IMG/VR virus record: IMGVR_UViG_3300020156_000003
Coordinates: 1-46,824 of that record
Direction: 5' to 3' (one strand)
Origin: a virus
Taxonomy: Duplodnaviria; Heunggongvirae; Uroviricota; Caudoviricetes
DNA: 46,824 bases
Position numbers and translations under genes: made by a program. A model generated the notes under the pieces. The model saw nothing but the letters and a program-made list of their open reading frames with translations, was not told where the DNA came from and searched no databases. Positions 6,853-46,300 of this stretch are shown here, in pieces (within the stretch, counting starts at the first letter, position 1; each line of letters begins with the position of its first letter).

Positions 6853-6880
6853 GCGAGCCGTCTGGATACGGCTCGCTTCC
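6853..6880 (+). terminator. Hairpin, possible terminator
   Basis: GCGAGCCG-tctggata-CGGCTCGC-ttcc; weak U tract. Confidence 0.4.
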
Positions 6881-7044
6881 TGGTCATGGCGCTTGCCTTG
6901 GAAGCGCCTGGCGTTCTGGATACGGCTGACGAACTGGTTGCCTCGGCGTGCCTCGGAGCGCCGCGCGCTGCGCCGCGGAATACGGCAGCGCTCCTGGTAA
7001 CGCTGGAGTGCCTAGGAAAAGGGCGAGCGCGTCGATGCGGATCG

Positions 7045-7163
7045 TCCTTGTTTGAGAACCGTCCTCAACTGCGAACCGTCCGCATTCGCACTCCATCCTC
7101 AAATGACAGCGCTCCTCATGTGCGAACCCTCCTCATTTGACAGTCATTCGCATTTTGCGTGCA
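7045..7163. repeat. Degenerate 17-bp-period tandem array (iteron-like)
   Basis: TCCTCA or a close variant starts at 7045, 7062, 7079, 7096, 7113, 7130 and 7147. Confidence 0.75.
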
Positions 7164-7415
7164 AAAAGCTATATGCACGCTTTATATGAAAAGAACGCAG
7201 TTTATACGAGTCCATATTACAACTCCATAGTTCACTAAGCACTGACTTAGAACGATAATCTCTACATACCACGACGCACACAACGATGCAGCGCGGTGCA
7301 GCAGACCCGATCTTTAAACCTGACAGAACCTGTATTCGCAATAGGGAAGCTCATAGCTATCTGAGTGTAACGCAGGTAAAGCAAACACTTTCTTAACTCT
7401 CAAAAGGGAAACATC

Positions 7416-8099
7416 ATGAAAAACTTTAAAGCAGAAACGATCGTTGCAAAACTCTTTAACGCAGTGACCGCACGCGTTCAAGCGCTGCGCGATGCTGAAC
7501 TGGTCGTTTCGTCTGAGTTCAAGAAGATTCTTGAGCACTACGCGCCCGACGGTAAGCATTACCGTTCATTCGTCGCGTGCGTCGAAACGGTGCGCGACGT
7601 GATTGATTTTGAAATGATGCTTAAGATCATTCAAAAGCATAAGCCCGCAGGTGCAAATGACGCGCAGTACATGCAAGCAAAGACCATTGAAAAGGTCAAC
7701 AAGTTTATCGTTGGTCTGGGTCAGAAAGACTTTCGCTTGCTCGATAACCATACGCGTTCACTCGTTGTTAATGCGATGTTGAACGACAAGCGCTTGACCA
7801 GTCGCGCAGCGTTCGCGTCACTGGTGAAGGTTGAATGGTCTGAAGAAATCAGCGAAGTTTTGCGCGCTCGTAATAACTACACTGCGGGCACTGGTAGCAC
7901 GCAACTCTCTAGCACGAAAGAGATGATGCGCACGCTGAAGCTGTCAGACGGTATCAAGGGCAGCAAGAACGCAGACTTCACCTTTAGCGCTGAAGCTGAA
8001 GCGCTCTTTGTTGAGCGCTTCGAGCAGGTCGCAAAGCTGGTCAAGACTAGCGAAGAAATCAGCGCAGAGATTGACGAGAACGACGAAATCGAAGCGTAA
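7416..8099 (+). CDS. Hypothetical protein, 227 aa, atypical codon usage
   Basis: SD AAGGGA; 0 of 25 Ala codons are GCC; acidic tail. Confidence 0.8.
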   Translation: MKNFKAETIVAKLFNAVTARVQALRDAELVVSSEFKKILEHYAPDGKHYRSFVACVETVRDVIDFEMMLKIIQKHKPAGANDAQYMQAKTIEKVNKFIVGLGQKDFRLLDNHTRSLVVNAMLNDKRLTSRAAFASLVKVEWSEEISEVLRARNNYTAGTGSTQLSSTKEMMRTLKLSDGIKGSKNADFTFSAEAEALFVERFEQVAKLVKTSEEISAEIDENDEIEA

Positions 8100-8108
8100 T
8101 CTTTAACC

Positions 8109-8140
8109 TGCTGCATCAGTCATGCGTGACTGATGCAGCA
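8109..8140. promoter_or_regulatory. Perfect 14-bp-arm palindrome containing an operator copy
   Basis: TGCTGCATCAGTCA-tgcg-TGACTGATGCAGCA. Confidence 0.7.
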
Positions 8141-8159
8141 TTCACACAAGGGATGCACA

Positions 8160-8291
8160 ATGCATGAATTCGCAAAGCAGCGCGAACAAGCAAAGCGCGA
8201 ACAAAGGGACTTTTTCATCAATGGTTTGTTGTGCGCTGGTCTGCTGTTTGCGTGCATGTACGCGTTCGCATACGCGTTGCAATCTGCTTAA
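8160..8291 (+). CDS. Small single-pass membrane protein, 43 aa
   Basis: SD AAGGGA; FFINGLLCAGLLFACMYAFAYAL hydrophobic helix. Confidence 0.55.
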   Translation: MHEFAKQREQAKREQRDFFINGLLCAGLLFACMYAFAYALQSA

Positions 8292-8452
8292 TTTTTGAGC
8301 AGACGCCCGAAGTCTTAGACGGATTGGACGGGCGGGATGGCCCTGCCTTCCTCAACTTCCGACCTCCGCAGACCCTTCCTTATAGAATCCGGCCGAGCCA
8401 GGATCCACATCCTTATACTTTCCCACTGCGAGGATCCGCCACCAGGCGCCCA

Positions 8453-8476
8453 TTGCCCAATTGCCCAATTGCCCAA
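8453..8476. repeat. (TTGCCCAA)x3 tandem repeat in the convergent intergenic zone
   Basis: Three perfect 8-mers. Confidence 0.8.
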
Positions 8477-8491: not shown

Positions 8492-8863
8492 TTAGGATCC
8501 GCCATGAGATCCGCCAAATTTCCAGGATTCCAGAACAGGAACCGCGGCCTCCCTGGCTATCGAACACATATGCCGGGTGCCAACGCCGCCGGCGAACGCC
8601 GCGACCATGTCAGGCTTCGCTTCGCGAAGCATCCGACAGTTGCGCACGCGCCCCGCGTGGCCGCCATACCGATCCCACTCTGCCTCGAAGGTCTTGAACG
8701 AAATCCGGCGGGCTTGCGCCCATTGACGAGCGAACGTGTCCGCGCCCGAGGCGCCGCCTTCGACCAGGAGGGTGATGGTGCGCTTGGCGTGGATCGCGTC
8801 CAGGATCCGGAACACGAATGCCCGATCCTTATAGTCCCGGCCGCCCGTGACGAGAACAATCAC
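8492..8863 (-). CDS. SLOG-superfamily (DUF2493/YspA-like) protein
   Basis: VLVTGGRDY, VEGGASGAD, AGRVRNCRML, AFAGGVGT motifs. Confidence 0.8.
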   Translation of the reverse strand: MIVLVTGGRDYKDRAFVFRILDAIHAKRTITLLVEGGASGADTFARQWAQARRISFKTFEAEWDRYGGHAGRVRNCRMLREAKPDMVAAFAGGVGTRHMCSIAREAAVPVLESWKFGGSHGGS

Positions 8864-14367: not shown

Positions 14368-15018
14368 ATGCAAACGACACAACTGCTGGAATGCGATCCG
14401 CGCACTCTTCAGCCCAATCCCTGGAACACGAATGTCGTGAGTCCGGACAACGAGGCCAAGATCGATGAATCGATCAAGCGGCTCGGCATGTTCAAGCCGA
14501 TCGTGGTGCGCACACTGGACGATGGCGCGCTACAAATCCTGGGCGGCGCGCACCGCCGTGACTCTGCGATCCGGCTCGGCATGAAGAAGGTTCCGGTCAT
14601 CAATCTCGGCTCCATCGACGATAAGAAGGCCAAGGAGATCGGGCTGGTGGACAACGGCCGCTACGGCGCCGACGACACGCTGCAACTGGCCGAATTGCTC
14701 GACTCCCTCGGCGCACCCGAAGACCTCGCGAAGTTCATGCCGTACACCGATGCGGATTTCGCGTCGATCTTCTCAAGTGTGAATATAGCGCTCGACGATC
14801 TTGATCTGCCCGATGACGACGGCGCAGCCCCAAGCGCGCCCGCCCCCAAACCCGCGCAGACCCACGCGGTCATGCGCTTCAAAGTGCCGCTGGGCGACGA
14901 CCAGATGATTTCGGAAGCTGTCGCCAGGGTGATGAAGCAGCAAGGCTTCACCGAGGCCGACGAGCTGACCAACGCCGGCGACGCTCTCGTCCACATTTTC
15001 AAGAAGGCAGGGTACTGA
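14368..15018 (+). CDS. ParB/Srx-domain protein 1
   Basis: LQPNPWNTN...SIKRLGMFKPIVVR...ILGGAHRR. Confidence 0.85.
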   Translation: MQTTQLLECDPRTLQPNPWNTNVVSPDNEAKIDESIKRLGMFKPIVVRTLDDGALQILGGAHRRDSAIRLGMKKVPVINLGSIDDKKAKEIGLVDNGRYGADDTLQLAELLDSLGAPEDLAKFMPYTDADFASIFSSVNIALDDLDLPDDDGAAPSAPAPKPAQTHAVMRFKVPLGDDQMISEAVARVMKQQGFTEADELTNAGDALVHIFKKAGY

Positions 15019-15019
15019 C

Positions 15020-15190
15020 ATGGCACGTTGCGACGGCGGCTATCCCTTTTGCGAGGACTGCGTCCACTACGGTAATCCCACCGGCGAGTGCGACGAGTGC
15101 GAGGACGGCTCCATGTATGAGGAGGCTGACAGCGTCGAGGAGCTGTCGGTTCACGAACTCAAATTCATGATTTTGAAGGAGGCGGCATGA
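15020..15190 (+). CDS. Small Cys-rich protein, 56 aa
   Basis: CEDC...CDEC; coupled to both neighbours. Confidence 0.55.
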   Translation: MARCDGGYPFCEDCVHYGNPTGECDECEDGSMYEEADSVEELSVHELKFMILKEAA

Positions 15191-15294
15191 GTCCGGCTGT
15201 GTTTGTGACTTGGGTGCTGGCCGTCGCCTTCAGCTTCCTGATCTTTGGCACTCTTTTCGCGGGCGCCTACGTCTGCTGGAAGGACATCAAATGA
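15187..15294 (+). CDS. Small membrane peptide, 35 aa
   Basis: SD GGAGG, ATGA overlaps, one TM helix. Confidence 0.5.
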   Translation: MSPAVFVTWVLAVAFSFLIFGTLFAGAYVCWKDIK

Positions 15295-15473
15295 TCGACT
15301 GGTGGATTGTTCCGACCATCATCACGCTGCTTGGTATCGCCGGCATGGTTGGCAGCCTGTTCGGGCGTGACTGGTTCGAGGCGGGTCTGATCGGCATGGT
15401 CGGGGCCGTCATTCTCTTTTGCCTGGCGCCGATCACCTGGATCGTGTGTCTTTTGTTGAAAGTGTTCTCATGA
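15291..15473 (+). CDS. Small two-TM membrane protein, 60 aa
   Basis: SD AAGGA, ATGA overlaps, two hydrophobic segments. Confidence 0.6.
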   Translation: MIDWWIVPTIITLLGIAGMVGSLFGRDWFEAGLIGMVGAVILFCLAPITWIVCLLLKVFS

Positions 15474-16114
15474 AGATCCAGAAATGGGGCATCGAGCGCG
15501 TCATCCCCTACGAACTGAACGCGAAAATCCATGATCCCGAGCAGGTCAAGCGTATCGCCAAGTCGATCGCCGAGCTTGGATGGGATCAGCCCATCGTGGT
15601 GGACAAGAACGGCGTGATCATCAAGGGTCACGGCCGGCGCCTGGCCGCCATCTCGCTCGGTTACAAGGAAGTGCCGGTCTTGGTGCGTGACGACCTGACG
15701 CCGGATCAGGTGAAGGCCGCGCGCCTGGCGGACAACCGCGTTGCCATCGGCAACATCGACGCCGAGCTGCTTGCCAAAGACCTGGCCGATCTCGAATTCG
15801 ACCTGACCGGCATTTTCGACGCCAAGGAGCTGGAGTTCGTCACGGCCGATCTGGGCGAGCTGAACCAGGATGCCTTCGTTGCCGACCTGGACGCGGAGAT
15901 TGCCGCGCAGGCCGACGAGACGACCAACGCGATCGCCGCGGCGGCCGACAAGGCGGTGCCGATCCAGAAGGCGCTGGGCTTTAAGGCGATCAAGGGTTCC
16001 GACGAGCGCGCAGTTGCCATGTTCATGGCGCAGTTGGAGGCCGAGTCCGGATTGACCGGCGCAGAAGCCTTCATGGAATTCATTCGCGCTTTCGCTCCTG
16101 CGAGTAAGTCATGA
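15470..16114 (+). CDS. ParB N-terminal-domain protein 2
   Basis: IPYELNAKIH...SIAELGWDQPIVVD...IIKGHGRRLAA...RLADNR. Confidence 0.85.
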   Translation: MKIQKWGIERVIPYELNAKIHDPEQVKRIAKSIAELGWDQPIVVDKNGVIIKGHGRRLAAISLGYKEVPVLVRDDLTPDQVKAARLADNRVAIGNIDAELLAKDLADLEFDLTGIFDAKELEFVTADLGELNQDAFVADLDAEIAAQADETTNAIAAAADKAVPIQKALGFKAIKGSDERAVAMFMAQLEAESGLTGAEAFMEFIRAFAPASKS

Positions 16115-16122
16115 GTGACTGC
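16105..16122. promoter_or_regulatory. Operator copy over a stop/start junction
   Basis: TAAGTCA-tgag-TGACTGC. Confidence 0.55.
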
Positions 16123-16719
16123 ATTCGCGTCGCAGTTGTCGCGTTTGTGACGGCCGTGTTGCTCGCCTGCGGCGGAGGAGGCGAGGGCGGCGCATCGCCG
16201 CGCACGGTCGTTGAGCTGTACGGCGAATCGACCATGACCGGCTACGGCGCGACCACCAGTCTGCCCGCCGAGCTGCAAAAGCTGCGCCCCGACCTGGAGG
16301 TTATCGGGCGCGGCGTCAACAGCACGACAGCCAGCGACCAACTGAAGACCTGGAACCCGCAAGCGTCGCCGGCACGGCTCGTCGTCATCAACCGCGGCAT
16401 CAATGAGCCGTACCGGGGCGTGCCGCCCGAACAGTTCCGCGCCGATCTCGCCCTGCTGGTGCGGCAGGCGCGCGACGCCGGCAAGCACGTCATCCTCCAG
16501 ACCCCAAACCCCGTGACCGGCGAGCTGGCCGCCGGCGTGCAGACAAGCGCGCAGGTAGTGCGGGAGGTCGCGTCCGCGATGAATGTGCCGCTGTCGGACG
16601 CCAACGCCATCCCAAACGCTGCCTCCCTGCTCGTCGACCCGCTGCACCCGAGCAACGCGCTGATCGGCCTGATGGCGTCCGATCTGGCGCGACTCATTCC
16701 CACCGAAAGGAGCAAGTAA
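16111..16719 (+). CDS. SGNH/GDSL-type hydrolase lipoprotein
   Basis: Lipobox LLAC; block I LYGEST, block III NRGINE, block V DPLHP. Confidence 0.75.
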   Translation: MSDCIRVAVVAFVTAVLLACGGGGEGGASPRTVVELYGESTMTGYGATTSLPAELQKLRPDLEVIGRGVNSTTASDQLKTWNPQASPARLVVINRGINEPYRGVPPEQFRADLALLVRQARDAGKHVILQTPNPVTGELAAGVQTSAQVVREVASAMNVPLSDANAIPNAASLLVDPLHPSNALIGLMASDLARLIPTERSK

Positions 16720-16883
16720 TGGACAAATTTTGGATGTGGTTGGCCTGGCGCCTGCCGCGACGTGCCGCGTATTGGGCGGCGTGCCGCGTGATGGCCCACG
16801 CCACGGTCGTTTATTCGACCAAAACCGCTTGCGAGCTATCGCCGGCCGACTGCCTGAAGGCATGGAGCGAAAAAGCGAAATGA
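16719..16883 (+). CDS. Small Trp-rich protein, 54 aa
   Basis: TAATG and ATGA coupling; MDKFWMWLAWRLP... Confidence 0.55.
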   Translation: MDKFWMWLAWRLPRRAAYWAACRVMAHATVVYSTKTACELSPADCLKAWSEKAK

Positions 16884-17536
16884 CCATTTACACCGTAGAC
16901 AAACGCTTCCACACGGAAGTTGAGCGCACGCCGCGCGTACTGGAGATCGCCGAAGCCTTCGGCCTGGGCCTGGACGACAAGGAGTTCGTCGTCTTCGATA
17001 ACCAGCCGATCGAGATCGAGCAGGGCGACGTGGTGTATGTGACCGGCCAGTCCGGCGCCGGCAAGTCGACCGTGCTGCGCGAGCTGAAAAGCCAGATGGA
17101 AGCGGCCGGTCACCAGATCGCCGACATCGACGCTATCCCGATGGTCAATTCGCCGCTGATCGACCAGATCGGCAAGAACACCACCGAGGCGCTGAACTTC
17201 CTGTCGATCGCCGGCCTGAACGACGCCTACCTGTTCATCCGGAAGCCCCATGAGCTGTCCGACGGCCAGCGCTACCGCTTCAAGCTCGCCAAGATCATCG
17301 AATCCGGCGCGAAGGTCTGGGTCGCCGACGAGTTCCTGGCCGTCCTCGACCGCACCACGGCCAAGGTGATCGCCTTCAACTTGCAGAAGGTCGCGCGCAA
17401 GCTCGGCGCCACGCTGATGGTCGCCACCACCCATACCGACATGGTCGCCGACCTGGCGCCCACCGTCTACATCGAGAAACGCTACCGCGAGAAGATCCAG
17501 ATCGTTCGCGCACCGGAAGGACTGAAGAATGCATAA
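16880..17536 (+). CDS. Stand-alone ABC-type ATPase
   Basis: Walker A GQSGAGKST, signature LSDGQR, Walker B WVADEF, ATTH; no TM partner. Confidence 0.9.
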   Translation: MTIYTVDKRFHTEVERTPRVLEIAEAFGLGLDDKEFVVFDNQPIEIEQGDVVYVTGQSGAGKSTVLRELKSQMEAAGHQIADIDAIPMVNSPLIDQIGKNTTEALNFLSIAGLNDAYLFIRKPHELSDGQRYRFKLAKIIESGAKVWVADEFLAVLDRTTAKVIAFNLQKVARKLGATLMVATTHTDMVADLAPTVYIEKRYREKIQIVRAPEGLKNA

Positions 17537-17858
17537 CACCGACGACGCCAAGTTCATGGATGACGTACTGAAGCGCTCCTACGGCGCCCCGGTGGTGGTC
17601 ATGTTCCATTCGCCCACCTGCGGCCCCTGCGCCTCCATGAAGCCGATGATCGAGCGCCTGGCGACTGAGTTGGGCTTTTTGCTGGTTGGCGTGGACGCCT
17701 CGCGCAACCGCGGTCTGGTCACGTCCGAGTCCGTACGTGCGGTGCCAACCATGATGATCTACAAGAACGGCAAGCAGCACGGATCTTCCCTGGCCGGCGC
17801 CAAGACGGAGCCGGTGGTTCGCTCCTACCTGCACGCCCACGGCGTCGCTGGAGCCTAA
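17529..17858 (+). CDS. Thioredoxin-family protein
   Basis: CGPC active site; VRAVPT cis-Pro motif. Confidence 0.85.
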   Translation: MHNTDDAKFMDDVLKRSYGAPVVVMFHSPTCGPCASMKPMIERLATELGFLLVGVDASRNRGLVTSESVRAVPTMMIYKNGKQHGSSLAGAKTEPVVRSYLHAHGVAGA

Positions 17859-17982: not shown

Positions 17983-18440
17983 CACACGAACAATTTTCCT
18001 TCTGGCTGGAAGGCTACCTGGCCGCGGGCGGCACCGACATCGCGGTGATCCGCGCCAAGCTGGCTGAGATCCGCCTGCCGAACCCGCACATGCCCCACGT
18101 CGGCATTCGCACGCCACAAAAGTGGCCTGAAAAGACGCCCATCTTTGGGCCGGACAACACAATGACGCGCACCCTGGAGCTGCGGCCGAGCGGCTTCCCG
18201 ACCGGGCCGGTCGTAACCAGTTACCTTGCCGGGAATGACCGCGTCCTGCTGTGCGACGCTGTCGCCAAAGGGGCGGGCGCTGACAACGCCGGCACCTGGG
18301 TGGGCGGCCACATCGATGACCAGCGCGAAGCCCTCCATGCCGCACGCTCGCGCACTGCGGCGCAAGCGTATGCCGAGCAGGAGGAGATCGACACCCAGAA
18401 TGCCCTGCACACGCTGCGCCGGTCCTCGGAGGCGCACTGA
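17979..18440 (+). CDS. Hypothetical protein, 153 aa
   Basis: MTHEQFSFWLEGYL N-terminus; coupled to both neighbours. Confidence 0.6.
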   Translation: MTHEQFSFWLEGYLAAGGTDIAVIRAKLAEIRLPNPHMPHVGIRTPQKWPEKTPIFGPDNTMTRTLELRPSGFPTGPVVTSYLAGNDRVLLCDAVAKGAGADNAGTWVGGHIDDQREALHAARSRTAAQAYAEQEEIDTQNALHTLRRSSEAH

Positions 18441-19429
18441 TGATCGTCGCCGACAACGCCGACATCCTGATCGAGCGCCGACAGGTTCCCGCCGGCCACG
18501 CGCTGTCGCTGCTGTCGCAGATTTACGTCGAGCGCGGCACCAAAGCCGATTGGGATCTGCTGCATGAACTGCACTACAAGGCGGAGAACCTGGGGATCGG
18601 GCCGAAAATCTACCGCTGCGTGCTGGACGGGCAGGTGATCGGCGTGGGCGTCATGACGGTGCCCAAGATGCTGCTGTCGGGCCGCAACGAAGCGATGCCC
18701 CACATGCGCCCGAACACCAATGGACGCGACAGCAAGCTGATCAACCGTCACCGCGCCCTGTGGTTGAACGCGCACTCCTGCACGAACTCGCGACTGGTGC
18801 TGGATACCATGTACCGCGGCGCCGGCATTGCGTACCGGATGCAGAACCTCATGATGCGCATGACGGGCTGCCGCTTCGTGGAGTTCCAGTCGAGCATGAG
18901 CAAGTTCAACCCGTTCGCGGCCAAGGCCGGCATGAAGTTCACCAAGCCGCGTCGCTCGGGCAATTACGAGAAGGGGCTGGCATTCTTTCGGCGCTGGTTC
19001 ACGTCCATGCCGATGGATTACGTGGGCGTCAAGGCCGAGATCGAGGCGTTTCCGCCGGCCGTCCGCGACAAGTGCATCGCCGAGATGCGCAAGTTCTACT
19101 ACACCTGCTCCAGCATGGAAAAGTCGGGCGACAACCGCGCCAACGGCACATCGCGCGTCGAGGCGATGGAGGTCGGCTACCTGCTCAAGTCCCTGCAACA
19201 GCTCGTCCTGGCGAGTCCGCTGTACGGCATTTTTGAGAATCCCGACTTCGGCCAAGCGCTGCCGGCACGTCTGCCGCTGGTGGCGTTCGACAACCAACCC
19301 CTGACCGCGCCGCTGGATGTTGCCGCGGCCAACGAACAAATGAGCCGAGTCGAATGCCGCGAGGCGATCGCGTCGGCCATGCAAGCCTTTGATGAGGATG
19401 AAGATGCACCTGACGGCCAAGCAGATTGA
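18440..19429 (+). CDS. GNAT-fold acetyltransferase-like protein (ABC-ATPase-associated)
   Basis: LHELHYK and RLVLDTMYRGAGIA acetyl-CoA-binding motif A. Confidence 0.75.
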   Translation: MIVADNADILIERRQVPAGHALSLLSQIYVERGTKADWDLLHELHYKAENLGIGPKIYRCVLDGQVIGVGVMTVPKMLLSGRNEAMPHMRPNTNGRDSKLINRHRALWLNAHSCTNSRLVLDTMYRGAGIAYRMQNLMMRMTGCRFVEFQSSMSKFNPFAAKAGMKFTKPRRSGNYEKGLAFFRRWFTSMPMDYVGVKAEIEAFPPAVRDKCIAEMRKFYYTCSSMEKSGDNRANGTSRVEAMEVGYLLKSLQQLVLASPLYGIFENPDFGQALPARLPLVAFDNQPLTAPLDVAAANEQMSRVECREAIASAMQAFDEDEDAPDGQAD

Positions 19430-20057: not shown

Positions 20058-20714
20058 GTGACAAAAGCAGCAACGAAAGCGCCGACCGCAAAACGCCTGA
20101 CCCCGAAGCAGTGGGCCGAGGCGGAAGCGCTTTGGGAGTCCGGCGCCGTCACCTACGAAGACCTGCGCAAGAAGTTCGGGCTGGCTCAGTCCTCCTTCGA
20201 GCGCCATTTCAAGAAGAAGGGCATCGTCAAGGGCGCCAAGGCTGCCGCGACCAAGAAGAAGGTTGAGGAAAAGCTGGAAGCCGCGGCGATCGACGAAGCG
20301 ACGGTGCTGGCCGCCCGTATCCGCGAGACGAAAGAGCAGCACTACACGATGGCGAACAACATCGGCAAGCTGATCTGGAGCGAGATCCTGGAGGCCAAGC
20401 GCAACAGCCACCCGATTGCAGTCGCCATGAACAACATCAAGACGCTGCGCGAGGCTGCGGCGTCCCTGGCGATTGTGCGCGCCGAGAAGTGGAGCGTGCT
20501 GGGCCTGGACAAGCCCGACGCCGTGGATCCGGATGAGCTGCCAGAACTGGTGATCTCGGAACTGACGGCCGAGCAGATCGAGGAGCTGCGCCGCCGCGAC
20601 GAAGCCGATCTGGACGACCTGGAGAGCGCGCCGAACCAGAACGCGGTGCAGCCCGACGAGGAGGGCGCCGATCCTGACGAAGACGACGAGAACGACATCG
20701 TCGTGGAGAGCTGA
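20058..20714 (+). CDS. Terminase small subunit-like DNA-binding protein
   Basis: N-terminal HTH (RLTPKQWAEAEALW...LRKKFG), acidic tail, directly upstream of TerL. Confidence 0.75.
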   Translation: MTKAATKAPTAKRLTPKQWAEAEALWESGAVTYEDLRKKFGLAQSSFERHFKKKGIVKGAKAAATKKKVEEKLEAAAIDEATVLAARIRETKEQHYTMANNIGKLIWSEILEAKRNSHPIAVAMNNIKTLREAAASLAIVRAEKWSVLGLDKPDAVDPDELPELVISELTAEQIEELRRRDEADLDDLESAPNQNAVQPDEEGADPDEDDENDIVVES

Positions 20715-20716
20715 TC

Positions 20717-21982
20717 ATGGCGATGAAGGCGTCGCTGAAGCTCCATCCCAAGCAGATGCTCGTCTTCCGGTCGCCCAAGCGCTTTCGCGTGGTGGTGGCC
20801 GGTCGCCGTTGGGGCAAGACCGCGCTTTCACGCGTCCTGATCATCACCCGCGCCAAGAAACGCAAGTCGAAGATTTGGTATGTGGCGCCGACCTACAAGA
20901 TGGCAAAGCAGATCATGTGGAACGACCTGCTGGAAGCCATCCCAAAGCGCTGGATCAAGAAGGTCAATGAGACGCGTCTGGAAATCTCGCTGGTCAACGG
21001 CACCATCATCGAGCTGAAGGGCGCCGACAAGGGCGACTCGCTGCGCGGCGTTGGCGTGGACTTCCTCGTCCTTGACGAGTTCCAGGACATCGATCCGGAA
21101 ACCTGGACGAAGGTCTTGCGCCCGACCCTGGCAGACCGCCGCGGCGACGCGATCTTCATCGGCACCCCGAAGGCGTACAACTACCTCTACACGCTCTACA
21201 AATACGGACAGCGCGGCGAAACCTATGTCGATGACAAGGGCAGGACGCGGCGCAATAACTGGGAGAGCTGGCAGTTCCCGACCATCACATCGCCGTTCAT
21301 CCCGATCTCCGAGATTGAGGCTGCGCGCAACGACATGGACGAGAAGTCGTTCAAGCAGGAGTTCGAGGCGTCCTTCGAGACGATGTCCGGCCGCGTCTAC
21401 TACCCGTTCGACCGCAACGATCACGTCGGCCAGTATCCGTTCAACCCGAAGCTGCCGATCTGGGTGGGCATGGACTTCAACATCGACCCGATGTCCACCG
21501 TGATCTTCCAGCCGCAGAAGAACGGCGAGTTGTGGGCGGTGGACGAGATCGTGCTGTTTTCCTCGAACACCGAGGAAATCTGCGAGGAACTGGAGAAGCG
21601 CTACTGGCGCCATCAGGTGCAGATCGTGGTCTACCCCGACCCGGCCGGCGGCCAGCGCCAGCACGCGCGCGGCGAAACCGACCTGGACATCCTGCGCGAG
21701 AAGGGCTTTAAGCGCCTGAAGTTTCGCAAGAAGCATCCTGCGGTGGCCGACCGCGTCAACGCCGTCAACCGGATGCTGCGCGCGGCCGACGGCACCATTC
21801 GCCTGCGTGTGGACGAACGCTGCACGCACTTCATCAACGCCTTGGAGCAGACCATCTACAAGCCTGGCAGCCGCGACGTGGACAAGTCCGGCGGCACCGA
21901 GCACAGCGCCGACGCAGGCGGTTACTGCATCGAGCTGGAATTCCCGGTGCGTAAGGTTGAGATTGGCGGCCTGTCTCGATAG
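20717..21982 (+). CDS. terL: Terminase large subunit
   Basis: VAGRRWGKT, LRGVGVDFLVLDEFQD, IGTPK, GMDFNIDP nuclease motifs. Confidence 0.95.
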   Translation: MAMKASLKLHPKQMLVFRSPKRFRVVVAGRRWGKTALSRVLIITRAKKRKSKIWYVAPTYKMAKQIMWNDLLEAIPKRWIKKVNETRLEISLVNGTIIELKGADKGDSLRGVGVDFLVLDEFQDIDPETWTKVLRPTLADRRGDAIFIGTPKAYNYLYTLYKYGQRGETYVDDKGRTRRNNWESWQFPTITSPFIPISEIEAARNDMDEKSFKQEFEASFETMSGRVYYPFDRNDHVGQYPFNPKLPIWVGMDFNIDPMSTVIFQPQKNGELWAVDEIVLFSSNTEEICEELEKRYWRHQVQIVVYPDPAGGQRQHARGETDLDILREKGFKRLKFRKKHPAVADRVNAVNRMLRAADGTIRLRVDERCTHFINALEQTIYKPGSRDVDKSGGTEHSADAGGYCIELEFPVRKVEIGGLSR

Positions 21983-41778: not shown

Positions 41779-43309
41779 CATCCGCCCCGTATCAGCTCCT
41801 GACATCACTGGGGTAACAGCTTCGTCCGGCATTCGCCTGGTCACCTTGCGCTGGACGGTGCCGGCGACGAACGTGGATCATGCGAAAACCGAAATCTGGT
41901 GGTCGAACGTCAACAATCGCGCTGGCGCTACCAAGATCGGCGAGGCGGCAGCTAACGTCTTCGTCCATAACAATGCCGACCCTGCGCAGGTTCATTACTA
42001 CTGGCTGCGTTCGGTCAACGGCTACGGTCGGGCCGATGGCAACTGGACGGCGGCGGTCAGCGCCACGCCCTTGCAGGCGGGGCAGTATGACATCCAGGCC
42101 GGGGCGATCAAGACCAGCCACATGAGCGCCGACTATGTGTACGCCGGCCGCATCAGCGTTGAGCAACTTGATGCCGGGGTAATCACGGCGACCGTCTCAA
42201 TCAACAGCAATGGCTACATCAGGGCGTCCGGCTCCAATACCACGGGTAACTCCGAGGCGGGTGCGGCGTCCGTCTTCGGCAACGCCAACGGCACTGCGAC
42301 GGGAGTGTTCGGTCATAGCGGCACCGGCATGGGGGTGTTCGGCCTGACCGCGGGCGGCAGCTCCCCTGGCACCAAACCGATCGGCGTGCGCGGCGTGGCG
42401 ACAGGAGGAATCTACGGGGTAGGGGTGCAGGGCGAATCGGTCACCGGCTATGGCGTGATCGGCATTACCTCCAATGGCCGCGGCGTGTACGGCGAATCGC
42501 TCTCTACCGGCTATGCAATCTACAGTAACGGCCCCGCGTATGTGTCCGGCCCCTTGACGGTCACAGGTACCATCAACGGCACCGTGTCGTACGCGTCTTC
42601 CGCGGGATCTGCAAGCACGGCGGGGACGGCCACCAATGCGAGCTACGCAACCACGGCAGGTAACTCCATCTCCACATCGAGTCTTTCGGGTGGTCGTTGC
42701 CTGGCTGCTACGAGTAATTCCGGAGAGACGGCGGGCACCTTCACCAACTATGGTTCTGGCAAGGAGCTTCTGTGCGCAGGCGGCAGCCATGCAGCCTATG
42801 CGTTCGCCGGCAAGGGCAAGATTTATGCCGCTGACGGATTCACGGCCTTCACCGGCGCCCACGAATCGCTCATCGACAAAAATAGCGCCTGGGAACCGGG
42901 CGACATCGTCATCGACAAGGCGATCATCCACGCGCCCGATGTCAATAACGCCACGTCGGAGATCGAGCTGTCTTTTGTACCGTGCCAGAAAGGCGCCTTC
43001 GGCGTGATCACTGAGTCGCGCCCGCTTGACCAGTATGTCCTCGTTGGCTACGCCGACTGGTGGCACTATGAGCCGACGCATCTGGTAGCGACCGTCAACG
43101 GGGTAGGCGAGGGCAAGATCAACGTCTGCGGCGAGGCCGGAGCAATAGAAAAGGGCGACCTGATCGTGACATCGTCCATGCCTGGCAAGGGCATGAGGCA
43201 GTCTGACGATCTGGTGCGCTCCTACACGGTCGCCAGGGCGCGGGAATCCGTACAGTTTGACGACCCAACTCAGGTGCGGCAGATCGCCTGCGTATATCTT
43301 TGCGGCTAG
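41768..43309 (+). CDS. Tail fibre/spike with probable C-terminal autocleaving chaperone domain
   Basis: N-terminal FN3-like segment, Gly-rich GVxG repeats, FTGAH...GEGKINVCGE...GDLIVTS..PGKGM C-terminus. Confidence 0.7.
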   Translation: MRINIRPVSAPDITGVTASSGIRLVTLRWTVPATNVDHAKTEIWWSNVNNRAGATKIGEAAANVFVHNNADPAQVHYYWLRSVNGYGRADGNWTAAVSATPLQAGQYDIQAGAIKTSHMSADYVYAGRISVEQLDAGVITATVSINSNGYIRASGSNTTGNSEAGAASVFGNANGTATGVFGHSGTGMGVFGLTAGGSSPGTKPIGVRGVATGGIYGVGVQGESVTGYGVIGITSNGRGVYGESLSTGYAIYSNGPAYVSGPLTVTGTINGTVSYASSAGSASTAGTATNASYATTAGNSISTSSLSGGRCLAATSNSGETAGTFTNYGSGKELLCAGGSHAAYAFAGKGKIYAADGFTAFTGAHESLIDKNSAWEPGDIVIDKAIIHAPDVNNATSEIELSFVPCQKGAFGVITESRPLDQYVLVGYADWWHYEPTHLVATVNGVGEGKINVCGEAGAIEKGDLIVTSSMPGKGMRQSDDLVRSYTVARARESVQFDDPTQVRQIACVYLCG

Positions 43310-43339
43310 TTGTAAGTCACAGATGACTTATGTTAAGAT
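43310..43339 (+). promoter_or_regulatory. Promoter with a perfect operator in the spacer
   Basis: TTGTAA-18-TAAGAT with extended TG; TAAGTCA-caga-TGACTTA at 43313-43330. Confidence 0.8.
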
Positions 43340-43367
43340 GCGGCCAATATTTCGATAGGTGGCGTAC

Positions 43368-46300
43368 ATGGCGCAGCTCAAGCAAGTCGTATCGGTTACA
43401 CAAGGCAGTCAGCAGGTCGTCATCTCCGGTGTCGACCTGGCTTCCCGCATCAAGAAGAACCATATCTTCATGGTGGAGGGGGCGCTCGTACCTTATACCG
43501 TGGCCGATGACGCGACCTACAACGGCGCCAACACGCTAGTGACGCTGACCGGCGCATACGCGCAGTTGACGAACGCAAGCGCCTCGGGCGTCTTCGTGAC
43601 CGACTACACCTATCCGGATCTGATTCCGACGATCTCGCAAGGGGATGTAGGTACCGCCGCGATCTTCACGAAGGCGATGTACCGGATCCAGGACATGATC
43701 AAGGTCGTCAGTCCCACAGGATTGCAGGAGTACGTCGACTTGGCGAACCAAGTGGCCGCAGATCGCACGGCAGTGGCGACACTTAAGACGCAGGTGGAGA
43801 CGGATCGGGCGGCAGTTGAAGTGGCCGCGTCGGTTGTTGAGGCTGCACAGGCAGCGGCGACGACCGCCAAGAATGACGCACAGGCGGCAAACACTGCTGC
43901 GCAGGCTGCCAAGACCGCTGCCGAGGCGGCGTCGTCCAGCGCCCAATCCGCAAAGACAGACACCGAGGCGGCCGCAGCCGGCGTCATCAACAGCGCCACC
44001 CTCGCGACAAGCGCCAAGACGGCGGCGGAGACAGCTCGCGACGCGGCTGTGGTGGCGAAAACGGCCGCCGAGACTGCCCGCGACGAGACGCAAACCTATC
44101 GGGGCGATGCGCAGGCGGCAGTCGCGCAGGTGCAGACCGACAAGGAAACCGTGACGTCCGCGGCATCCCAGGCGCTCGCGTCGGCAAATAACGCGTGGAC
44201 GTATCGCGGCGAGGCGCTTGCGGCGCGCGCAGATGCGGTCGGCGCAGCGGAAGACGCTGTGGATGCGAGTGCGGAAGCGCTCACGTATCGCAACGACGCT
44301 CAGGCGGCGAAGACCGCCGCAGAAGCGGCGAACACAAATGCGCAGACGGCCAAGGGGGCAACGGAAGCTGCCCGCGACACTGCTGTGGCGGCAAAGACGG
44401 CCGCAGAGACGGCGAAGACCGATCTGGAGGCGGCGCGCGATGCCGCTGTGGCAGCAAAGACAGCGTCGGAGACGGCGAAGTCGGCGGCGGAAATCGCAAA
44501 GACTGCCGCCGAGACGGCAAAGACGGGCGCCGAAACCGCAGCAAGCAACGCCGCCAACAGCGCAAGTGCAACACAGACGATTGTTGCCGCCCTCGACGCG
44601 GCGCTGATCTCAATCCGCGCCCGCTCGCTTGGCGCATTTTCGACCGCGACCGAGCCGGTGGTAGACGGCAACGGCAACGCGCTCACGGAAGGCGATGAAT
44701 ACTTCAACACCGACACGAACAAGTGGCGTGTGTGGATTGATCCGACGGGATGGGAAGATCAGGACGCAGACGCCCAGGCGGCAATGCAGAACGCGCAGGC
44801 GTCTGCCGCCAACGCTGCCGCTTCCGAGGCGTCTGCGCTAACTTACAAGAACAACGCGCAGTCCTTCGCGGCGACGGCAGAAGGGCATAAGAATGCCGCG
44901 GCCGAAAGCGCGACGAGCGCAGGGACGGCCGCGAATGCGGCGGGCGGCCACGCGGACGCTGCCTCGGCCAAGGCTGGCGAGGCGTCCGCCTCCGCAACGC
45001 TCGCCCAGGATTGGGCAACCAAGACGACCGGCCCCGTCTCGGGCGCCGAGTATAGTGCGAAGAAGCACGCCCTGGATGCTGCGGCCAGTGCCGCAGCAGC
45101 AGCGGCTTCCGCAGGACAGGCGGCGTCGGGCCAGGTGAATGCAGATTGGACTGAGGCCAATCCGGCCTCGAAAGCCTACATTCAGAACAAGCCTGCCCTT
45201 GCGGCGGTCGCTACGAGCGGAGCGATGGCTGATGTGACTGGACTGGCTGATGCCCTTGCAGGGAAAGCAGATGATGCCCATGCCCACACCATCTCTGATG
45301 TGACTGGACTGGTTGACGCCCTTGGTCTGAAGGCTGACAAGTCGAACACCTACACCAAGGATGAGACGGATGCGGCTATTGCCGGTGTACTTGATGCCGC
45401 TCCTGAAACGCTCAACACGTTGAATGAGTTGGCGGCTGCTCTTGGTGATGATCCGAACTTCGCTACCACTGTAGCGAATCAAATCGGCACCAAGATGGAC
45501 AAGTCGGGTGGCACCTTCACCGGCCCCGTCACCCTGGCTAATGGAAGGCTGCGGTCGACGGGTACGTTCAATGTGGACGGAAGCGCCCCGAACGCATCCG
45601 GACACGATGACGGATTGTATGTTGCTGACCTTGGCACCACTTCGGGTACAACTGGCAACCCCACTTATGTGCCTGCTATTGTCGGTCGGCTTAGCAGCAC
45701 TCGCAACATCGCTCTTTCCTTCGATGACCAGGGTTACTTGTGGGGGTTCCGCAGCCACACCACTGGCACAGAATGGAAGTGGCAATCCAAGGCGAAGTAT
45801 GCCGACCGATTGACATCGGCTCGCACAATCAATGGCGTAACCTTCGACGGCAGCGCCAATATCACGCTTTCCAAAGCAAACATTGGACTTGGCAATGTCG
45901 ATAACACCAGCGATGCGGACAAGCCAGTATCGACTGCGATGCAAACAGCCTTGAACGGCAAAGCTGATAAGTCAGAATCCGCTACATTCCTTGCTTTGTC
46001 GTTGGCTACTACTAGTGGGCAGACGTACACTGTGACCGGCAGCGACGAGACACTTGAGCAGTACCGCAACAAGTTCATTGTTATTGGCAACAACACGCTC
46101 AATCTCAACGGGGTAGGTTTCCCTGACGGGTGGAAGTGCCGCGTCTTCCTTAACACTAATTCGGCCAACTCCAAGCTGCAAATTGCTGGAGTCGATCAAC
46201 TTGCCACGCGCACACAACCTGCACATGTGGAGGTCGTATCACGGAATGGAACTTTGACGCTGTACCGTCTTATGCATGACAGTACGTTGTTTGGTACCTC

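Follow-up and report, generated by a model that had tools for sequence, protein, structure and literature searches.

Selection has cleared one short CC-centred word from both strands of a small phage DNA island, from its promoter to the motif AAGTCYTAGA, and this island probably makes up the outermost 0.85-1.3 kb at the right end of the virion DNA, as triangulated in relatives. The pattern suggests that an enzyme reads the purged word, possibly the phage's own DNA-modifying enzyme. The analysed stretch of 46.8 kb, called the window below, is the opening part of a complete circular 110.7-kb phage assembly. The genome size of ~110 kb, the gene order of helicase, ParB-ParB-ABC-GNAT, TerS, large terminase (TerL) and portal, and the related TerL (Table 1) place the phage among the siphophages of the nickie/SSU5/RHEph10 group, and it is probably temperate because a homologue of the island gene sits inside a 743-kb Herbaspirillum huttiense contig. 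No published description of this island was found in the literature; the lineage-specific words, the boundary motif and the triangulation from terminal-repeat sizes are new from this analysis.

Table 1. Features of the island, its flanks and the terminase neighbourhood (window coordinates)
Feature	Position	Strand	Remarks
17-bp tandem array, 7 units, inner island border	7036..7154	+	six units carry one avoided word each, in 17-bp phase
CC/GG-poor island	7132..8319	.	rho 0.37, GC 0.48; no KCCD on either strand over 7228-8319
Sigma-70-like promoter	7231..7259	+	9/12 match; one such match expected by chance
Gene of the 227-aa conserved phage protein	7416..8099	+	PHROG 9272/4202
Perfect 14-bp inverted repeat	8109..8140	.	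holds one copy of the 18-bp operator-like palindrome
43-aa ORF, one hydrophobic segment	8160..8291	+	peak hydropathy 1.98
Boundary motif AAGTCYTAGA	8310..8319	+	inferred right end of long terminal repeat (terminase cut/recognition site)
Second conserved element, GGCCCTGCCTTCCTC core	8339..8361	+	found in the window's clade ~20 bp beyond the motif; flank CC-dense
Two ParB-like genes, stand-alone ABC ATPase (16730-17536), thioredoxin-like gene	14368..17858	+	first part of candidate cassette
GNAT-fold acyltransferase, candidate reader/modifier of the avoided word	18440..19429	+	predicted from fold search
DNA-binding protein (probable small terminase) and large terminase	20058..21982	+	TerL 60-63% identical to nickie, RHEph10 and SSU5

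The purged word in the window and in its relatives

The initial annotation had described five CC/GG-type sites as missing from positions 7140-8335 and abundant elsewhere, with GCGC and CGCG retained, and this description held. GGCC, CCGG, CCWGG, GGNCC and CCNNGG were all absent from the region, although 30 sites would be expected if it had the site rate of the remaining window and 15.8 if its own base composition is taken as the basis. None of 1000 shuffles keeping that composition reached zero; GCGC (18) and CGCG (15) had normal counts. The gap free of the named sites covered 1,328 bp (7011-8339), the runner-up in the whole 110.7-kb genome being 498 bp. Shuffles that preserved dinucleotides gave only 3.3 expected named sites, and 35 of 1000 had none, so the loss of the named sites follows from the lack of a shorter word. 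The comparison of observed and expected k-mers with shuffled controls, which had been proposed as a check, confirmed the depletion and identified its driver, after pooling of relatives, as [GT]CC[AGT] (KCCD) and its complement [ACT]GG[AC], avoided on both strands. The KCCD-free gap was 1,096 bp long (7224-8320), and the second-longest gap genome-wide was 110 bp. Among 1,205 frequent degenerate 4-mers this gap ranked top with 84.6 expected sites skipped, while the best gap outside the island in the same scan skipped 38. ACC/GGT and CCC/GGG stood at normal levels in the island, and the avoided word was not depleted in the remainder of the genomes of this phage and its relatives.

A depleted stretch around a homologous gene was found in seven loci (L001-L007) and about twenty further contigs, and the same gene, place, boundary motif and purge were shared by more than 25 relatives, down to remote homology. 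Pooled over the loci of the window's clade, KCCD occurred 15 vs 295 and 12 vs 358 times on the two strands, and the five loci not used in defining the word had 0-5 vs 55-111. The word differed between lineages, being BCC in L054/58/59/62, nearly all CC contexts except ACCG in L068/69, and RCCK in SSU5, Cyrano and pJN2-26 (Salmonella, E. coli and Klebsiella; 0 vs 24-26 each). In nickie and the Rhizobium phages every CC/GG was avoided. The nickie island ran for 1,137 bp without any CC or GG, with the purge continuing through non-coding DNA to the end; the CC/GG-free stretch measured 851 bp in B1VFA and 1,279 bp in V1VFA-S (next gap 74 bp in both), and the RHEph10 island held 7 CC/GG in 1,221 bp. 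The island proteins of nickie and the Rhizobium phages had no Gly, Pro or Trp, and selection was strong enough in some lineages to strip these residues from whole proteins; a paralogue encoded outside the island has kept them. The word class followed both the TerL tree and the GNAT tree of the phages, and phage lineage is confounded with host. To our knowledge RCCK is not the specificity of any restriction enzyme or PAM in E. coli or Salmonella, and the word avoided by the island matches no recognition site known to us.

Weak or short islands were present despite an intact GNAT in L018/L044, L017, L061, BUCTxx99 and JGB6. In the Xanthomonas/Stenotrophomonas relatives (BUCTxx99, ANB28, JGB6) only a promoter stretch of 130-260 bp was clean, and in JGB6 and ANB28 it lay ~1.1 kb inside the boundary motif. 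The inner border of the island tracked the transcription unit, falling at the promoter in the window's phage and at gene ends in the Rhizobium phages, and the island of V1VFA-S was 338 bp longer where one gene is added.

The island borders and the probable virion end

The right island edge carried AAGTCYTAGA, exact or with one or two bases changed, in 29 of the 29 loci compared. In the window's phage the KCCD-free gap stopped 1 base past the motif, in 18 relatives the avoided word resumed 10-37 bases after the motif start, and the outer flank beyond it was dense in avoided word. Terminal repeats of 3,605 bp in B1VFA and 3,939 bp in V1VFA-S have been published (PMC12509600), and Nican01 has a long terminal repeat (PMC11256456). 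These two Rhizobium genomes, B1VFA and V1VFA-S, were mapped on each other, and a 3,605-bp stretch was required to match 3,939 +/- 3 bp. Of 95,197 testable positions only 243 gave the size match within 3 bp, while 22% of positions could not be tested; the matching right ends spanned 43,218-43,460, a 243-bp interval with the motif inside it, at 43,247. A tolerance of +/- 10 bp admitted two more intervals, one of them inside the island. The deposited orientation of the B1VFA and V1VFA-S records is not at the virion ends. Because the published repeat sizes place the right end in the interval holding the motif, the island is probably the virion tip, and the placement of the island at a physical end of the virion DNA, already proposed in the initial annotation, is very probably correct. 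The relatives argue strongly that a long direct terminal repeat would have its right end at the motif; its left end was not located in the window's phage. Contigs aligned to the window showed neither ends nor depth steps, and the small proportion of RNA runs gives no evidence of expression; the sequence was best represented in a soil metagenome, which may be its source. The island end appears to be the somewhat likelier one to enter the cell first, since the purge extends right up to the terminus while its inner limit is set by the transcription unit.

The record of ANB28 (PQ434692) ends exactly 3,800 bp from the motif, near the Rhizobium repeat sizes; this record end was excluded from the evidence, as it falls inside a gene and the orientation method is not stated. 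A second member of the 227-aa family, B1VFA_058 (L023:20335-21258; also L010:26115-26951), lay 2-4 kb inside the motif and was not purged, and in B1VFA it stood ~680 bp away from where the repeat is inferred to begin on the left. The annotated gene of RHEph10 gp097 (L010:29106-29786) is probably a shadow frame, with a family-like ORF on the opposite strand.

At the inner border the KCCD-free gap begins just upstream of the -35 element of the promoter. The tandem array there had a 15-bp version at the same border in L006 and no counterpart in most relatives. As to an iteron replicon, the array occurred here and in L006 only, no Rep family match was found for the 227-aa protein, and the annotated RepC of B1VFA is located elsewhere. 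The 18-bp palindrome TAAGTCA-N4-TGACTTA had 36 sites genome-wide at <=2 mismatches (732-43330 in the window and the rest of the genome), one copy lying at 8116 between the two island genes, and the boundary motif resembles two half-sites of this palindrome fused. Short CC-rich words (CCATGG clusters, 8-bp and 24-bp repeats) recur beside the island, in the left flank of L002, L003 and L007 and at 8449-8476 and 6861-6938 of the window. A YAcAr/SLOG gene (8492-8863) lies shortly beyond the boundary motif, and L003 has one too. The leaders of the island gene in L003, L004 and L007 carry an exact boxA-like GCTCTTTAACA ~1.0 kb left of the motif, which has no counterpart in most other relatives.

The island protein and the cassette beside the terminase

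The 227-aa gene and the 43-aa hydrophobic ORF named in the initial annotation both exist. Structural modelling of the 227-aa protein (pLDDT 88.7) gave a helical N-terminal part, a winged-helix domain at ~100-205 with a three-helix bundle and a beta wing, and a short disordered acidic tail. Nearly all of the top 50 fold matches were winged helices over residues 92-214 with Z 5.7-7.4, values below 8 that denote a common arrangement only. The fold at ~100-205 resembled MarR/PadR winged helices and the N-terminal winged helix of Mrr-like endonucleases (Z 6-7.4, rmsd 2.2-4.8), but the 227-aa protein has an extra helical N-terminal part and its family is unnamed in Pfam/NCBIfam. The atlas gave a borderline match to an Mrr_cat (Mrr-type endonuclease) cluster with TM 0.50. 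No Pfam or NCBIfam family was matched, Foldseek found no match in the PDB, and a single-sequence search of isolate phages and viral contigs returned nothing, whereas the alignment-based search did find relatives, 32 close and 141 at profile level, all unnamed. The Rhizobium island proteins were remote members of the family, with E values from 7e-10 to 5e-7 against a small database; for nickie gp019, SSU5_120 and the Xanthomonadaceae island proteins the profile was not significant, and the C-terminal pattern was alike by eye.

The protein had been described as acidic-tailed and taken for a counter-defence factor. The short acidic tail was borne out by the model, but the body is basic, with 31 K+R and 26 D+E in residues 1-205, and an acidic DNA mimic of the Ocr/ArdA type was rejected on the basic body and the winged-helix fold. 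The model is consistent with a DNA-binding early regulator or protector, for which a counter-defence role would be possible. The 43-aa ORF is optional in the family and not found in every relative, and small hydrophobic ORFs recur at its place in some of them, without clear sequence conservation.

Upstream of the terminase, the genes for ParB, ParB, ABC ATPase and GNAT were present in every group member. The product of 18440-19429 scored Z 8-10 to many GNATs, carried an invariant RGAG motif, had Acetyltransf_1 neighbours in the atlas, and showed the fold with acyl-donor motif A that marks the GNAT superfamily. Its score to Mu Mom (8bv8) was Z 8.9, tied with ordinary acetyltransferases, and it had no sequence match in the PDB, Mom included. 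PHROGs (phrog_886) and RefSeq label it 'ABC transporter ATP-binding subunit', yet it is a GNAT-fold protein. Among isolates, matches to the GNAT and ABC ATPase came from 31 records, of this phage group only. No C5 or N6/N4 methyltransferase was found in the window's genome. A gene for a GDSL-like lipase/acylhydrolase (16111-16719) is inserted between the ParB and ABC ATPase genes and is not there in L002 and nickie; an acyl-removing enzyme within an acyl-transfer cassette may be of interest. In L003 a gene for an Acb2/Tad1 hairpin (anti-defence sponge) is inserted in the ParB cassette (L003:17129-17419).

Known systems offer partial parallels. Mom acts on a degenerate, non-palindromic target. 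Mu Mom is a GNAT able to modify dsDNA (PMC13219725), and it shares with the protein here the GNAT fold and a late operon beside packaging genes, but there is no sequence match, and in the phage here ABC and GNAT are encoded by separate genes, accompanied by two ParB genes. Iyer et al. 2013, as cited in PMC7824862, predicted a base-acylation system that pairs a GNAT with an ABC ATPase, and the same protein pair is encoded here. Phage base modifiers that depend on ParB act on particular sequences and are frequently encoded close to terminases, and those with thymine dioxygenases modify DNA post-replicatively (PMC13229309); the ParB-like partner and terminase neighbourhood are alike, but the phage here has no dioxygenase and the chemistry differs. 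No report of a genome region sparing the target word was found in the literature on Mom or GNAT-ABC systems.

Explanations for the purge

As a tentative first choice, to which we give somewhat less than an even chance, we propose that the terminal unit, the first to be expressed, is kept free of the word on which the phage's own ParB/ABC-ATPase/GNAT base-acylation cassette acts. On the linear virion DNA the island would then form the transcription unit nearest the end; this end would enter the cell first, its winged-helix gene would be the first expressed, and the word would be read by a sequence-specific enzyme of the phage, with the ParB/ParB/ABC-ATPase/GNAT cassette next to the terminase as the likeliest candidate. 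The cassette would acylate G or C late in infection, in parallel with Mu Mom on adenine, leaving the bulk genome marked and the tip unmarked so that host RNA polymerase could read the tip. Another need for an unmarked tip may be that modification-dependent nucleases or glycosylases would find nothing until the winged-helix protein binds and protects or activates the remainder. A single ever-present enzyme would give a complete, degenerate and lineage-specific purge, and the promoter-only clean stretch of the Xanthomonas/Stenotrophomonas relatives fits promoter reading as the core need.

The link of the cassette to the word is circumstantial. The word cannot be assigned to the GNAT because it tracks TerL as well, and the link is weakened since hosts differ between lineages and some GNAT-bearing members have weak islands. 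As the repressor/integrase region is not purged, a full transcription block by the mark would need a removal step, and none was found in the analysis. With more reserve, the purged island may record the enzyme specificity in each lineage (KCCD, BCC, RCCK, CC), with G/C acylated genome-wide and the winged-helix protein letting the marked remainder be read or protected. Were the cassette the reader, a modification predicted in 2013 and never characterised would gain a target motif, and the sparing of an entry gene from self-modification would be a new principle.

Host defence acting on unmodified entering DNA, the main rival and in general terms the view of the initial annotation, is a possible but rather unlikely explanation, in which the tip, entering first, lacks words that host systems recognise, such as those of enzymes cutting CC/GG-containing restriction sites, phosphorothioate-linked systems (GpsG/CpsCA) or type I-F CRISPR with its CC PAM. 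The island lies at the inferred terminus, the nickie purge reaches the end through non-coding DNA, and the words could be host-specific since hosts differ among the phage lineages. Precedents are the T5 first-step DNA (PMC10644984) and the leading regions of Murciavirus (PMC12455610). As in T5/BF23 first-step-transfer DNA, a constrained terminal segment is combined with a long direct terminal repeat (in relatives here) and with small early genes, one of them DNA-binding, and the inner-border repeats recall the injection-stop region (PMC10644984). Unlike T5/BF23, the island is ~1.2 kb rather than 9.7 kb and covers the outer third of the repeat only, a degenerate 2-4-base word rather than particular restriction sites is purged to zero, the phage is probably temperate, and no A1/A2/dmp homology was seen. 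In the avoidance of type I R-M motifs by Autographiviridae (T7; Murciavirus, PMC12455610), the motif is likewise absent near one end and present elsewhere, but there it is a known host recognition site, whereas here it is lineage-specific and non-palindromic, and the island has no Ocr-like acidic mimic as in T7.

Our results also showed that common palindromes without CC/GG were not avoided. In the island, 6-bp palindromes of this kind were over-represented (21 vs 9.7 expected), and in the nickie and Rhizobium islands they numbered 129 vs 57.5 expected and included CTGCAG, GTCGAC and GAATTC. The claim in the initial annotation that restriction sites are the target therefore found no support, the word being moreover degenerate, non-palindromic and lineage-specific. 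The island works in the manner of the T5 first-step region and the Murciavirus leading region, but it was not assigned to a T5-type first-step class, as both palindrome counts speak against a general depletion of restriction sites. A plain CC PAM misfits, since ACC and CCC are tolerated in the window's clade; type I-F PAM avoidance would fit nickie and the Rhizobium phages only. RCCK is common to phages of three enterobacterial genera, and patchy defences would be unlikely to yield a complete purge with loss of Gly, Pro and Trp. A host-encoded reader would mean an unrecognised defence with 2-4-base specificity in enterobacteria, pseudomonads and rhizobia. The analysis provides base-level predictions in culturable phages (nickie, B1VFA, SSU5, Cyrano) for the virion-end position and for the enzyme-read word of each lineage.

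Less probable again, and in our estimate improbable, is that another phage factor (a nuclease, nickase, ParB-like or winged-helix protein, or the terminase) reads the word, and that the tip is word-free for cutting, repeat duplication, packaging or ejection, not for expressing entry genes. The end of the purge at the terminus motif, the word-dense outer flank, the inner 17-bp array carrying the word in phase, and the tracking of TerL as well as GNAT by the word class would all agree with such a factor. Its action would be hard to reconcile with an inner border that follows the transcription unit, instead of a fixed length or the whole 3.6-3.9-kb repeat, and with JGB6 and ANB28, which are clean only in the promoter stretch inside the motif.

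An effect at the level of RNA or codons, whether through codons chosen for high expression or through selection against Rho rut sites (YC), is very improbable. GCT, GCA and GGT codons are typical of highly expressed genes, and boxA-like words occur in some leaders. The codon pattern itself was as first described, the 25 alanines of the 227-aa gene using GCT 4, GCC 0, GCA 11 and GCG 10 times, against 154 GCC among 393 alanine codons in ten other genes of the phage. Synonymous shuffles keeping codon usage nevertheless gave 19 expected KCCD sites in this gene, where there are 0 (0/5,000 shuffles). Both strands and non-coding DNA were purged as well, the TC dinucleotide occurred exactly as expected (805 vs 805), and the major capsid gene uses GCC and GGC freely.

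A recent horizontal transfer that brought in low-GC DNA, or mutation pressure acting locally by cytosine deamination on an exposed end, would agree with the GC of 0.48 in the island vs 0.60 but is scarcely credible, since other genome windows with GC <= 0.50 carried 50-67 KCCD sites vs 2 in the island, the CC/GG loss was compensated by GC/CG and not TC/CT, and gene, place, motif and purge are alike in more than 25 relatives. The tests thus led us to reject, for the window's clade, low GC, recent transfer, codon bias, Rho avoidance and a plain CC PAM as explanations. Gaps of 438 bp for SGCS and KCGM occurred in two other low-GC stretches of the genome, at ~67,000-67,440 and 46,725-47,160; they are far weaker than the island and may reflect mere AT-richness.
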